Shown piece by piece: positions 9,511-19,345 of a stretch of 64,000 nucleotides of DNA (position 1 is its first letter; the number at the start of each line of letters is the position of its first letter). A program made the position numbers and the translations under genes. The stretch lies in NCBI RefSeq assembly GCF_056712565.1, contig NZ_CM160072.1; one strand, written 5' to 3'. The notes under the pieces are model-generated. The model searched no databases, was not told where the DNA came from, and saw only the letters and a program-made list of their open reading frames with translations.

Positions 9511-11109
9511 ATGCAAAAAGCACAACGGATCATTAAAACCTATCGCCGTAATCGAATGATTGTTTGTACGATTTGCGCACTCGTTACGCTCGCTTCGACC
9601 CTGAGCGTGCGATTTATTTCACAGCGTAACTTAAATCAACAACGGGTAGTACAATTCGCCAATCACGCTGTAGAGGAATTAGATAAAGTACTGCTTCCCC
9701 TACAGGCAGGTAGCGAAGTCTTGCTTCCGCTGATTGGTCTGCCCTGCTCTGTCGCCCATTTGCCATTACGTAAACAGGCGGCAAAACTCCAAACTGTGCG
9801 ATCCATTGGCCTGGTGCAAGACGGCACACTTTATTGCTCCAGCATTTTTGGTTATCGCAATGTGCCCGTCGTGGACATTCTGGCTGAACTTCCTGCACCG
9901 CAACCACTTTTACGACTGACGACCGACCGTGCCCTGATAAAAGGCAGTCCGGTTTTGATTCAATGGACGCCTGCAGCGGGCAGTAGCAATGCTGGGGTCA
10001 TGGAGATGATTAACATCGACTTACTGACGGCAATGCTCCTTGAACCACAACTGCCGCAAATCAGTAGCGCCAGCCTGACGGTGGACAGTCGGCATTTGCT
10101 CTATGGTAATGGGCTGGTAGATTCCCTTCCGCAACCTGAAAACAATGAAAACTATCAGGTTTCTTCGCAACGCTTTCCTTTTACCATTAACGTTAATGGT
10201 CCGGGGGCTACGGCGCTGGCATGGCACTATCTTCCAACACAATTACCGCTGGCGGTGCTGCTAAGTTTACTTGTGGGCTATATCGCCTGGCTGGCGACCG
10301 CTTACCGAATGAGTTTTTCCCGCGAAATCAATCTGGGCCTGGCGCAACATGAGTTCGAATTGTTCTGCCAGCCTTTGCTTAATGCGCGCAGCCAGCAATG
10401 TATTGGCGTAGAGATTTTGCTGCGCTGGAACAATCCGCGTCAGGGCTGGATTTCGCCGGATGTGTTTATTCCTATCGCGGAAGAACATCATTTAATTGTG
10501 CCACTGACCCGCTATGTGATGGCAGAAACCATTCGTCAGCGCCATGTTTTCCCGATGAGTAGTCAGTTTCATGTTGGCATTAACGTCGCACCCAGCCATT
10601 TTCGCCGTGGTGTGCTGATAAAAGATCTCAATCAGTACTGGTTTAGCGCTCACCCGATTCAGCAACTGATCCTCGAAATCACCGAACGCGATGCCTTACT
10701 GGATGTTGATTATCGGATTGCCCGCGAGCTACATCGTAAAAACGTCAAACTGGCGATTGATGACTTCGGCACCGGCAATAGTTCATTTTCCTGGCTTGAA
10801 ACATTACGTCCTGACGTGCTGAAAATTGATAAGTCATTTACCGCAGCTATAGGTTCTGACGCGGTTAACTCGACGGTGACCGATATCATCATCGCACTGG
10901 GGCAAAGACTGAATATTGAACTGGTGGCGGAGGGTGTGGAAACGCAAGAACAGGCGAAATATTTGCGCCGTCATGGCGTCCATATTTTGCAAGGGTATTT
11001 GTACGCACAGCCGATGCCACTATGTGATTTTCCCAAATGGCTGGCGGGCAGCCAACCGCCGCCCGCCCGGCATAATGGACATATCACCCCCATTATGCCG
11101 TTACGTTAA
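9511..11109 (+). CDS. pdeD: c-di-GMP phosphodiesterase with periplasmic CSS-motif domain and EAL domain (PdeD/YoaD)
   Basis: ORF-track frame 9481..11109; likely start MQKAQRIIKTYRRN (9511); EAL-domain motifs EFELFCQP and DDFGTG. Confidence 0.8.
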   Translation: MQKAQRIIKTYRRNRMIVCTICALVTLASTLSVRFISQRNLNQQRVVQFANHAVEELDKVLLPLQAGSEVLLPLIGLPCSVAHLPLRKQAAKLQTVRSIGLVQDGTLYCSSIFGYRNVPVVDILAELPAPQPLLRLTTDRALIKGSPVLIQWTPAAGSSNAGVMEMINIDLLTAMLLEPQLPQISSASLTVDSRHLLYGNGLVDSLPQPENNENYQVSSQRFPFTINVNGPGATALAWHYLPTQLPLAVLLSLLVGYIAWLATAYRMSFSREINLGLAQHEFELFCQPLLNARSQQCIGVEILLRWNNPRQGWISPDVFIPIAEEHHLIVPLTRYVMAETIRQRHVFPMSSQFHVGINVAPSHFRRGVLIKDLNQYWFSAHPIQQLILEITERDALLDVDYRIARELHRKNVKLAIDDFGTGNSSFSWLETLRPDVLKIDKSFTAAIGSDAVNSTVTDIIIALGQRLNIELVAEGVETQEQAKYLRRHGVHILQGYLYAQPMPLCDFPKWLAGSQPPPARHNGHITPIMPLR

Positions 11110-11112
11110 CGC

Positions 11113-12669
11113 TTACTCATCTTCATCGTGCGCCGGTTGCTCTTTAACAATGCGAACCAGATCAACACGATAATCATTGGCTTCAATGATGGTGATATGC
11201 AGTGGCCCTACATCAATCACATCGCCCACACGGGGAATGTGACCATTTGCCGAGATCACGAGGCCCGCGGCCGTCGCGATATCATCGTCATCGGCAAGGT
11301 GCTCAACATCAAGCGCCTGCTGCAAGGCATGCAAATCTGTACCGCCTTTTACCAGCCAGCCGTCACCGTCGGTAATGATTTCCGGCGTTTCGTCAGCGTC
11401 CGGGAATTCACCCGCAATGGCTTCCAGCACATCCAGCGGCGTGACCAGACCTTGTACCACACCAAACTCGTTGGTCACGATAACAAAGCTCCCGCGAGCA
11501 CGACGCAGCACGCCCAGCAGGTTGATCGGATCGAGGGTTTCCGGGACGATAATCGCCGGAGACGCCGAAGCTATCGCCGCCACATCAACTCCCTCTTCCA
11601 GCGCCACCAGCAGTTCTTTAGCACGTACGATGCCGATAATTTCATCCAGTTCACCGCGACATACCGGGAACAAACTGTGCGGTGAGGAGAGCAGTTGCTC
11701 GCGGATTTCATCGACCCCGAGATTAGCATCAACCCAGCTTATTTCACCGCGCGGCGTCATGATCCCGCGCAGAGAACGCGACGCCAGCGTCAGTACGCCG
11801 TTAATCATGTAACGTTCTTCTTCGGCAAACGCACCTTCCGGGATCGGCATCGGCATCGGGTTATCGGCATCGTGCTGAACATTGGCCTGACGTTTCCCGC
11901 CCATCAAACGCAGGATGGCATCGGCAGTACGCGCTCGCAGCGGCAAAGTCGACTGGTGACGAATAAAGTTGCGACGCGCAATCTGGTTAAACACTTCGAT
12001 GATGATCGAGAAGCCAATCGCGGCATACAGGTAACCTTTCGGAATGTGGAAACCGAAACCTTCTGCCACCAGACTCAGACCAATCATTAACAGGAAGCTC
12101 AGACAGAGCACCACCACCGTGGGGTGCTGGTTAACGAATCGCGTCAGCGGTTTTGATGCCAGCAGCATAACCGCCATCGCAATCACTACCGCCGCCATCA
12201 TCACCGGCAAATGGTTAACCATCCCTACTGCAGTAATTACCGCATCCAACGAGAAGACGGCGTCAAGGATGACAATCTGTGTGACGACCACCCAGAAACT
12301 GGCGTAGCCTTTACCGTGGCCGGAATCATGATCGCGGTTTTCCAGCCGTTCATGCAGTTCAGTTGTTGCTTTGAACAGCAAGAATATGCCCCCGAACAAC
12401 ATAATCAGGTCGCGTCCGGAGAAGGAGAAATCCATGACGGTAAATAGCGGTTTGGTCAGCGTGACCATCCATGAAATCAGCGACAGCAGCCCCAGACGCA
12501 TAATCAGCGCCAGTGATAATCCCAGCAAACGCGCTTTATCGCGTTGTTTTGGCGGCAGTTTGTCAGCAAGAATGGCGATGAAGACCAGGTTATCGATACC
12601 CAGCACAATTTCGAGAACAACAAGCGTGAGTAGCCCCGCCCAAATCGAGGGGTCCATTAAGAATTCCAT
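11113..12669 (-). CDS. yoaE: UPF0053 inner-membrane protein YoaE (TerC + CBS + CorC_HlyC domains)
   Basis: 518-aa [38 protein letters not shown]...; TerC-like membrane N-terminus and CBS pair C-terminus. Confidence 0.85.
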
Positions 12670-13131
12670 GACAAGCTCCTGCTTAAGGAATAGCTATTCG
12701 ACGCCAGAAATAATGCAGGCGTAACGACAAAATGCAAACGAAAGGTGCGGCATAAAGTGCCAGAAAGGCAGGCGTTAAAAGGCCTGATGCTGAAATGACG
12801 TCGGTGACGATCCATACTGCGGGCTACTGCCCTATACTCCATGGTTGTTAAACAGGAGTTAAACATATCAGAGACGCCTCTGATTTGGCAAAGATTTACC
12901 TTCCTTTGCAAACGAATGTGACAAGGATATTTTACCTTTCGAAATTTCTGCTAATCGAAAGTTAAATTACGGATCTTCATCACATAAAATAATTTTTTCG
13001 ATATCTAAAATAAATCGCGAAACGCAGGGGTTTTTGGTTGTAGCCCTTATCTGAATCGATTCGATTGTGGACGACGATTCAAAAACACATCTGGCACGTT
13101 GAGGTGTTAACGATAATAAAGGAGGTAGCAA

Positions 13132-14103
13132 GTGACCATTGCTATTGTTATAGGCACACATGGTTGGGCTGCAGAGCAGTTGCTTAAAACGGCAGAAATG
13201 CTGTTAGGCGAGCAGGAAAACGTCGGCTGGATCGATTTCGTTCCAGGTGAAAATGCCGAAACGCTGATTGAAAAGTACAACGCTCAGTTGGCAAAACTCG
13301 ACACCACTAAAGGCGTGCTGTTTCTCGTTGATACATGGGGAGGCAGCCCGTTCAATGCTGCCAGCCGCATTGTCGTCGACAAAGAGCATTATGAAGTCAT
13401 TGCAGGCGTTAACATTCCAATGCTCGTGGAAACGTTAATGGCCCGTGATGATGACCCAAGCTTTGATGAACTGGTGGCGCTGGCAGTAGAAACAGGCCGT
13501 GAAGGCGTGAAAGCACTGAAAGCCAAACCGGTTGAAAAAGCCGCGCCAGCACCCGCTACCGCAGCACCAAAAGCGGCTCCAACTCCGGCAAAACCAATGG
13601 GACCAAACGACTACATGGTTATTGGCCTTGCTCGTATCGACGACCGTCTGATTCACGGTCAGGTCGCCACCCGCTGGACCAAAGAAACCAATGTCTCCCG
13701 TATTATTGTTGTTAGTGATGAAGTGGCTGCGGATACCGTTCGTAAGACACTGCTCACCCAGGTTGCACCTCCGGGCGTAACAGCACACGTAGTTGATGTT
13801 GCCAAAATGATTCGCGTCTACAACAACCCGAAATATGCTGGCGAACGCGTAATGCTGTTATTTACCAACCCAACAGATGTAGAGCGTCTCGTTGAAGGCG
13901 GCGTGAAAATCACCTCTGTTAACGTCGGTGGTATGGCATTCCGTCAGGGTAAAACCCAGGTGAATAACGCGGTTTCGGTTGATGAAAAAGATATCGAGGC
14001 GTTCAAGAAACTGAATGCGCGCGGTATTGAGCTGGAAGTCCGTAAGGTTTCCACCGATCCGAAACTGAAAATGATGGATCTGATCAGCAAAATCGATAAG
14101 TAA
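13132..14103 (+). CDS. manX: Mannose PTS enzyme IIAB
   Basis: 323-aa ORF (GTG start) MTIAIVIGTHGWAAEQLLK...; Ala/Pro-rich IIA-IIB linker. Confidence 0.9.
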   Translation: MTIAIVIGTHGWAAEQLLKTAEMLLGEQENVGWIDFVPGENAETLIEKYNAQLAKLDTTKGVLFLVDTWGGSPFNAASRIVVDKEHYEVIAGVNIPMLVETLMARDDDPSFDELVALAVETGREGVKALKAKPVEKAAPAPATAAPKAAPTPAKPMGPNDYMVIGLARIDDRLIHGQVATRWTKETNVSRIIVVSDEVAADTVRKTLLTQVAPPGVTAHVVDVAKMIRVYNNPKYAGERVMLLFTNPTDVERLVEGGVKITSVNVGGMAFRQGKTQVNNAVSVDEKDIEAFKKLNARGIELEVRKVSTDPKLKMMDLISKIDK

Positions 14104-16544: not shown

Positions 16545-16771
16545 CCTCATTTGGGGAGTAGCTGATTTCCAGATTCCGGAAATGTACGTGTCAACATACT
16601 CGTTGCAAAACGTGGCACGTACGGACTGAACACTTTCAGTCAGGCGAGACCATATGCACATCAATCGCTATGCCTGCATGAACGCGAAAACCATCGCGGC
16701 TTGTTGTTCATGTATGCATGTTTGCTGGGGGCGATGATGTGTTTTATGGATACCCCGGTCAGGACGTTGTC
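16545..16771 (+). promoter_or_regulatory. yybP-ykoY family Mn2+ riboswitch and long 5' leader of mntP
   Basis: Conserved aptamer elements GGGGAGUAG (16553-16561) and GAGACCAUAU (about 16645-16655) directly upstream of mntP. Confidence 0.6.
16654..16737 (+). CDS. Candidate 27-codon upstream ORF in mntP leader ([27 protein letters not shown])
   Basis: ATG immediately 3' of riboswitch aptamer, open for 27 codons, stops 34 nt before mntP ATG; no strong Shine-Dalgarno seen. Confidence 0.3.
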
Positions 16772-18144: not shown

Positions 18145-18235
18145 GACAACTCCGGCAGGATACTAAAGGCCGCAAGTGTAACGCGAATCATGCGGCGGGC
18201 AAATATCCGAACGACTGGAGCGAAGATAAAACAAA

Positions 18236-18262
18236 GTAAAAAGCCTCGCATTCGACGAGGCT
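18236..18262 (-). terminator. Rho-independent terminator after cspC
   Basis: On minus strand GCCTCGTCGAATGCGAGGC hairpin followed by TTTTT. Confidence 0.65.
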
Positions 18263-18309
18263 TTATAGCGAGATTGAAGCGTATTCACACTTCAGATCAG
18301 TGGATTCGA

Positions 18310-18519
18310 TCAGATAGCTGTTACGTTAACAGCTGCCGGACCTTTCTGACCGTCCTGAATTTCGAACTCAACGTTCTGACCTTCAGCCAGAGTTTTGAAA
18401 CCATTACCCTGGATAGCGGAGAAGTGTACGAACACATCTTTGCTGCCATCAGCCGGAGTAATGAAGCCAAAACCTTTAGACTCGTTGAACCACTTAACCT
18501 GACCTTTAATCTTTGCCAT
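18310..18519 (-). CDS. cspC: Cold-shock-family protein CspC
   Basis: 69-aa [40 protein letters not shown]... (RNP1/RNP2 motifs). Confidence 0.95.
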
Positions 18520-18531
18520 TTGAAAAATTCC

Positions 18532-18675
18532 TTAGATTGTTTTCTTCGCCCGCAGGCATAACATAGATAAAACTGACACATTACTGCATGAGGCACCAAT
18601 ATAAGGCTCGGCAGAGAAGCGGTATTCAACGTCAACGTGTTTACTCAGGACTTCTTTACTGAAAATGCCACACAT
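18532..18675 (-). CDS. yobF: Small protein YobF (47 aa), co-oriented immediately upstream of cspC
   Basis: Hand translation [47 protein letters not shown]; GAGGT Shine-Dalgarno upstream. Confidence 0.8.
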
Positions 18676-19345
18676 AAACAGAACTGTACCTCGTTTAACC
18701 CGAAATCTGTTATCACATACAACGTTAATTATGGCAAGCCATTTTTAAACATGTCTCGATCAGACGCACAAATCTCGATACGTCTTCCACTTTTTTGCAC
18801 ACTTATGCAACGGAATACGCGCCGATATATCATTGTGCTTAACCTTGCCAGTTCAGGCAGATACTTAAACTGGCGTATTTTTTCTAACATAGTTCAATAA
18901 GTTCAGTTGTTCCAGGCCAGTGAGAGAAGTTATTACATAGTGCGTGCAATATCACATTTTTTGCTATGCAATGAATAAAAAGTTATATCACTTTTTCTCA
19001 TAAAACAGTCAGTTAACGGCTATCAATTACCCTAAAGAGAAGTCAATCCCCAAAGGGATTGTAAATTTAAAATAAGAAAAATTGATGAATGAGCAAAAAA
19101 ATCAAGAGAGAAACGTTTCGCTAATAAATAATACCACGCTTAATCACAAATCCGATGTAAACATCCTAATAAATTAATGAGGGAAATATCTTTTTCTGAT
19201 ATCCCGTTACGCAAATTAATAATATGATAATTATTTGAAGTCAGACCAGAGTTTTAATTTGAAGCAGCTGCACCATGACAGTGCGTATAATCAGCATGAA
19301 TTGAGTAACCCTTCAACGACGGGGTTACTCAAGATTGAGGAAGGA

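Follow-up and report, generated by a model that had tools for sequence, protein, structure and literature searches.

The yoaE-manX locus

The window, by which we mean the whole 64,000-nucleotide stretch of DNA that was analyzed, belongs to the E. coli core chromosome, with yoaE and yoaL on its minus strand and manXYZ, the mannose transporter genes, on its plus strand. A 601-bp segment around the 29-nt string considered below was found in 5423 of the 5426 complete E. coli genomes, in a single copy each and at 95 to 100% identity. Gene names were taken from the RefSeq annotation of the identical E. coli locus, which lists yoaE and yoaL (minus strand) and manX, manY, manZ, yobD, and mntP (plus strand). 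According to the list of open reading frames (ORFs) and to RefSeq, yoaE occupies positions 11113 to 12669 on the minus strand, its ATG ending at 12669, and manX, the first gene of manXYZ(-yobD), occupies 13132 to 14103 on the plus strand and begins with a GTG codon at 13132. The limits of the 462-bp region that the original prediction had delineated between the two genes are thus borne out.

RefSeq also places a 52-codon leader ORF, yoaL, at 12657 to 12815 on the minus strand, with a stop that overlaps the yoaE start by 13 nt. Roughly the leftmost third of the 462 bp is therefore yoaL sequence, and the region is only partly noncoding. YoaL is a leader peptide, and loss of its start codon lowers the translation of MgpA/YoaE by means that were reported as unknown (PMC12421838). 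An Rfam search of 10 to 20 kb at a permissive threshold found no RNA family within 12670 to 13131. Elsewhere in the window, a match to the manganese (yybP-ykoY) riboswitch upstream of mntP (16545 to 16641, plus strand; 40.9 bits, E = 2e-8, gathering score 45) is the known mntP leader, and a full-length match to the cspA thermoregulator (18235 to 18695, minus strand; 135.6 bits) presumably corresponds to a csp paralogue together with its leader (cspC region).

In order to obtain a phylogenetic footprint, we scanned species-representative genomes with ManX, which gave 80 Enterobacteriaceae loci, and aligned the 480 nt upstream of manX from 79 of them with the window. The start region of yoaL and the leader upstream of it (12795 to 12840) were among the best-conserved intergenic parts. 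Upstream of yoaL-yoaE, we found a PhoP box on the minus strand at 12849 to 12865 (TGTTTAACTCCTGTTTA, TGTTTA-ACTCC-TGTTTA), the only match without mismatch to KGTTTA-N5-KGTTTA in the window. Its hexamers were conserved and its 5-nt spacer was variable across the 80 sequences. A PhoP footprint on the same box is published from Shigella, and the box is listed as a member of the PhoP regulon (PMC5775216); it belongs to the divergent yoaL-yoaE promoter and not to the control of manX. Between the PhoP box and the distal CRP site described below lies a conserved inverted repeat, TTGGCAAAG-N10-CTTTGCAAA (12885 to 12912), which includes GCAAAGATTTAC; the equivalent stretch of the Salmonella yoaE promoter, GCAAAGAGATGT, is protected by CpxR (PMC6952189).

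The manX promoter

The 5' untranslated region (UTR) of manX is 115 nt long (PMC5861419). We placed the transcription start (+1) at position 13017 on the plus strand because this is where the 115-nt UTR begins when counted back from the manX GTG. With +1 at 13017, the residues U91, C95, C139, G150, G152, and C167 named in the same study (PMC5861419) all carried the right letters, and the centers that RegulonDB gives for the CRP sites, -40.5 and -92.5, were reproduced exactly. The -10 hexamer TAAAAT lies at 13006 to 13011 (plus strand), 6 to 11 nt upstream of the start, and was identical in all 80 sequences. A generic sigma-70 scan missed the manX promoter and returned a single match, on the minus strand at 12891 to 12862, at chance frequency. 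This miss is expected, since the promoter is of class II CRP type and has no -35 box. At the other end of the leader, an Hfq-binding AUAAUAAA (13113 to 13120, plus strand) abuts the ribosome-binding site AGGAGG (13120 to 13125); both are conserved and match the published arrangement, in which the wild-type Hfq motif of manX, AUAAUAAA, stands just 5' of the ribosome-binding site (PMC5861419).

The flagged string holds one half of a NagC operator

The original prediction had drawn attention to the string CCTTTCGAAATTTCTGCTAATCGAAAGTT, which was said to resemble an operator of the Mlc/NagC type and to lie at about 12925 to 12955. The string is present exactly once in the window, but at 12935 to 12963, ∼10 nt further right. 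NagC and Mlc sites are 23-bp quasi-palindromes in which only the TT at -6/-5 and the AA at +5/+6 are invariant; their logos were reported to be indistinguishable except at ±11, where C/G marks the high-affinity NagC sites and A/T is found in every Mlc site (PMC4288165). Ten NagC operators are known from Table 1 of PMC3098098, among them "man distal," GATATTTTACCTTTCGAAATTTC. This sequence matched the window at 23 of 23 positions, at 12926 to 12948 on the plus strand (center at 12937, or -80). The left 14 nt of the string (12935 to 12948) are the promoter-side half of this distal operator.

To score the region, we built a symmetrized NagC matrix from the nine other listed sites, man distal being left out, and scanned it over the 64-kb window. 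The distal operator reached 15.7 bits and ranked 1st of ∼64,000 positions (window mean, -22; standard deviation, 8.8). Both invariants are present (TT at 12931 to 12932 and AA at 12942 to 12943), and the letters at ±11, G at 12926 and C at 12948, are those of the high-affinity NagC type; this G...C pair was also the commonest, occurring in 28 of the 80 sequences. The second-best match to the matrix in the window, TTTATTTCACAGCGTAACTTAAA (9613 to 9635, 15.1 bits), falls within the start of pdeD and is probably a false positive, since its letters at +5/+6 are A-C and not the invariant AA.

The aligned sequences agreed with the placement of the distal operator. Of the 80 sequences, 60 carried a site scoring at least 8 bits in the distal-operator region, and in 56 the top-scoring site kept the spacing to the CRP site that is seen in the window. 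The median best score was 14.4 bits, versus a 99th percentile of 6.7 bits for the background, and the best-conserved letters were the TT and AA. About a quarter of the species had no good distal operator at the aligned position. At Raoultella and Klebsiella loci (L008, L012, L013, and L014), the distal operator was a better palindrome, for example, TATTTTTTGCGCCGCGAAATTAT at 17.6 bits, and had T/T at ±11, which is the Mlc type and not the NagC type. These letters suggest that the distal site favors different repressors in different genera.

The resemblance noted in the original prediction thus held for 12935 to 12948, the right half of NagC man distal, and failed for 12949 to 12963, which is unconserved spacer. 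The quoted string as such is no operator; the true one begins 9 nt upstream of it.

A putative Mlc-type operator over the -10 hexamer

A second operator, ATTTTTTCGATATCTAAAATAAA, was found at 12992 to 13014 on the plus strand (center at 13003, or -14), where it spans the -10 hexamer. It scored 12.1 bits and ranked 7th in the 64 kb with the NagC matrix, which serves here as a proxy for Mlc because the two logos are so alike; the available Mlc site sequences amounted to one (ptsG). This proximal operator has TT at 12997 to 12998, AA at 13008 to 13009, and an A at both 12992 and 13014 (±11), and its register is ambiguous by 1 bp (center at 13002 or 13003). The TT and AA, together with A/T at both ±11 positions, were kept in 80 of 80 sequences. 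Sequence rules and conservation point to an operator of the Mlc type. Mlc probably binds at 12992 to 13014; in the work of Plumbridge (1998), the proximal operator was reportedly preferred by Mlc and the distal one by NagC, in agreement with the rule for ±11. The two operators are 66 bp apart, one on each side of the CRP site at -40.5. When we searched the literature with the sequence of the proximal operator, no match was obtained, and the distal sequence led to the FITBAR paper only. The manXYZ operon is repressed by Mlc and activated by CRP (PMC8085971, PMC4393010) and is repressed by NagC (PMC2806358).

CRP sites

The CRP matrix was derived from 47 RegulonDB sites, the manXYZ rows being left out, and its training sites scored between 5.5 and 21.7 bits (median, 14.8). 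The proximal CRP site, ATTACGGATCTTCATCACATAA, lies at 12966 to 12987 on the plus strand and is listed in RegulonDB with its center at -40.5 (class II; row in the Shimada 2011 supplement). The SELEX-derived CRP box for this site is ACGGATCTTCATCACA (Shimada 2011 supplements, PMC3105977). It scored 8.7 bits, inside the training range, and ranked 15th in the window. It reads ACGGA-N6-TCACA and has one perfect half-site of TGTGA-N6-TCACA (the class II reference center is near -41.5). The TCACA half was present in 80 of 80 sequences, and the full 22-mer was identical in 39.

The distal CRP site, GAATGTGACAAGGATATTTTAC (12914 to 12935, plus strand; center at -92.5), is likewise a RegulonDB row (Shimada 2011, supplementary file 5, PMC3105977), and it overlaps the distal NagC operator by 10 bp. 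This site is weak (2.7 bits, rank 269 with the 47-site matrix), and its TGTGA was found in only 11 of the 80 sequences. It is curated, yet its generality is doubtful.

Over the promoter as a whole, the segment from 12962 to 13019, which contains the -40.5 CRP site, the proximal operator, the -10 box, and +1, was almost invariant, and 12949 to 12961 was poorly conserved. With significant matches to the NagC and CRP matrices in the region and with the published sites, the general reading of the original prediction, a manX regulatory region controlled by Mlc, NagC, and CRP, proved right. The Mlc-type operator (12992 to 13014) and the CRP sites (12966 to 12987 and 12914 to 12935) are elsewhere in the region and had not been pinpointed.

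The right part of the string and its inverted repeat

The right part of the string, TGCTAATCGAAAGTT (12949 to 12963), separates the distal operator from the -40.5 CRP site. Possible second elements at 12942 to 12964 and 12944 to 12966 scored 1.6 to 2.1 bits with the NagC matrix, versus 15.7 and 12.1 bits for the two operators. When CG was set at +3/+4 as in other sites, which puts the center at 12953, the letters at -6/-5 were T-C, so that the TT invariant was broken. Among the 80 sequences, 12949 to 12963 occurred in 68 variants, and none had a site of at least 8 bits. Differing in nearly every related species, this stretch is spacer and not an operator.

The partially palindromic look described in the original prediction is real and extends further than had been seen. 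Arms at 12928 to 12942 and 12955 to 12969, separated by a 12-nt gap, are complementary at 13 of 15 positions, so that the right part of the string completes, in E. coli, an inverted repeat with the left half of the operator. When the region was simulated 200 times with a first-order Markov model, a value of 13/15 arose in just 2 runs. A repeat of at least 12/15 was confined, among the 80 aligned sequences, to the window and two close Escherichia relatives. Within the string, TTTCGAAA (12937 to 12944) is a perfect 8-bp palindrome, with one copy in the 64 kb versus 0.9 expected by chance. The motif CGAAAG, which had been singled out, did not stand out, since CGAAAG, CTTTCG, and TCGAAA were all at background frequency in the window. 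The 13/15 repeat with its spacer is statistically unusual, and our preferred reading, half an operator followed by spacer, does not account for it. As a lesser possibility, 12955 to 12969 might serve as an auxiliary NagC half-site by way of this E. coli-specific inverted repeat.

The repeat could also be taken to mean that the whole string is a composite operator, in which a second, overlapping NagC/Mlc site at ∼12942 to 12964, with TCGAAAG as its right half, supports an extended or cooperative repressor complex. NagC sites, glmU distal and man distal among them, indeed typically have TCGAAA as the core of their right half, ATCGAAA is kept in Salmonella, and the 13/15 pairing of 12955 to 12969 with the distal operator's left half, rare as it was in the simulations, would fit such a complex. 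However, the low matrix scores and the T-C at -6/-5, which breaks one of the four invariant positions, speak against a second site, as do the 68 variants, the lack of any sequence with at least 8 bits, and the TT/AA letters, which were kept in just 3 of 80 sequences. Such a site is also absent from the published NagC list (PMC3098098, Table 1). We consider a composite operator improbable.

Even less credible is that the string is a CRP or Cra site instead of a site for a ROK-family repressor. The string does have a CRP site on either side and holds AATCGA, which forms the core of the Cra motif, but of the 16 nt of that motif only these 6 fit, with mismatches in both flanks. The CRP scan proposed with the original prediction found sites in the region but none in the string: the best 22-mer centered there had -1.1 bits, and one that extended over the right end of the string had 5.1 bits (rank 79). 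The stretch is, moreover, not conserved. On matrix scores, flank mismatches, and poor conservation, a CRP or Cra site inside the string was rejected. It is just as hard to credit that the palindromic look is a chance product of AT-rich promoter DNA and the string wholly nonfunctional: the short motifs are at background frequency and the right half is unconserved, but the left half belongs, letter for letter, to a published NagC operator, which is conserved in position and ranks 1st in the window. The match to the literature refutes chance for 12935 to 12948; the chance reading holds only for 12949 to 12963, where it agrees with our preferred reading of half an operator plus spacer.

Together, these results confirm the original observation in part and give its interpretation partial support. 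They show that a reading of sequence alone can pick out a real operator half, and the true place of the operator is now corrected. The result is an ordinary one of little significance overall, and it points forward only through the conserved Cra-like box of the manX leader.

A candidate Cra site in the manX leader

A Cra (FruR)-like palindrome, CTGAATCGATTCGA, lies at 13051 to 13064 (+35 to +48), in a conserved block that spans 13046 to 13063. It contains a perfect 10-bp palindrome. We compared it with ctgaAtCGaTtcag and gcTGAAtCGaTTCAgc; with the ChIP-exo Cra motif ctgaAtCGaTtcag (PMC5888115), it agreed at 12 of 14 positions, including all those of high information. TGAATCGATTC was found in 68 of the 80 sequences. 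The motif alone is not significant, as the 12-nt Cra core with one mismatch allowed had 2 matches in the 64 kb versus 0.9 expected.

In Salmonella, manXYZ is repressed by Cra, and Cra binding to a PmanX fragment was seen as a gel shift, its site not having been mapped (PMC10100716). The conserved palindromic core GAATCGATTC is a candidate for the unmapped operator behind that repression and that shift; we put this forward tentatively, as a possibility that falls somewhat short of an even chance. If true, it would add a fourth transcription factor to the E. coli manX switch, acting as a roadblock downstream of the start, and would give a site-level explanation for the Salmonella observation. 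The conserved leader block at 13046 to 13063 may instead have a role at the RNA level. Within the leader, TGAATCG (13052 to 13058) can pair with CGATTCA (13075 to 13081).

Proposed mechanism and comparison with known systems

The region is, with high confidence, the documented divergent control region of E. coli between yoaL-yoaE and manXYZ, made up of a CRP-dependent promoter and two operators for ROK-family repressors. The identity, position, and conservation of the sites were observed here, and the steps of occupancy, looping, and induction given below are inferred from established knowledge of these regulators. Transcription starts at 13017 in a CRP-dependent manner, from the TAAAAT -10 box and the class II CRP site at -40.5. 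The two operators bracket this CRP site, with the Mlc-type operator over the -10 box and the NagC-type operator at -80. A repressor bound at the proximal operator would block RNA polymerase, and NagC bound to both operators, 66 bp apart, could form a DNA loop around the CRP site, as at nagE-nagB. During glucose transport, Mlc would be sequestered on dephosphorylated PtsG and its repression relieved; GlcNAc-6-phosphate would release NagC, and cAMP-CRP would provide activation.

The manX switch has been a textbook case of joint control by Mlc, NagC, and CRP since the 1990s. The switch in the window is the K-12 manXYZ control region, already known, and offers nothing new. Compared with the E. coli K-12 manXYZ promoter (RegulonDB; NagC/Mlc site lists of Plumbridge), the NagC man distal operator and the CRP sites at -40.5 and -92.5 are identical in sequence, as is the 115-nt leader with its Hfq site AUAAUAAA. 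At most a few bases differ between the strain of the window and K-12, outside these sites, and we see no difference of substance.

At nagE-nagB, repression by looping is established. There, as at manX, the region between divergent genes (nagE-nagBACD) holds a CRP site with a 23-bp NagC operator of the form TT-N9-AA on either side. In contrast, the promoter-proximal operator of manX has A/T at ±11, as expected of the Mlc type, and its main repressor is Mlc and not NagC; its divergent partner, yoaL-yoaE, is no sugar gene and has PhoP and CpxR sites of its own. The ptsG gene resembles manX in having an Mlc operator of the same family, TTATTTTACTCTGTGTAATAAAT, with A/T at ±11 and CRP sites at -40.5 and -94.5. 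It differs in its two promoters, both of which carry an Mlc site, and in its lack of a high-affinity NagC site, whereas manX combines one operator of the Mlc type with one of the NagC type.
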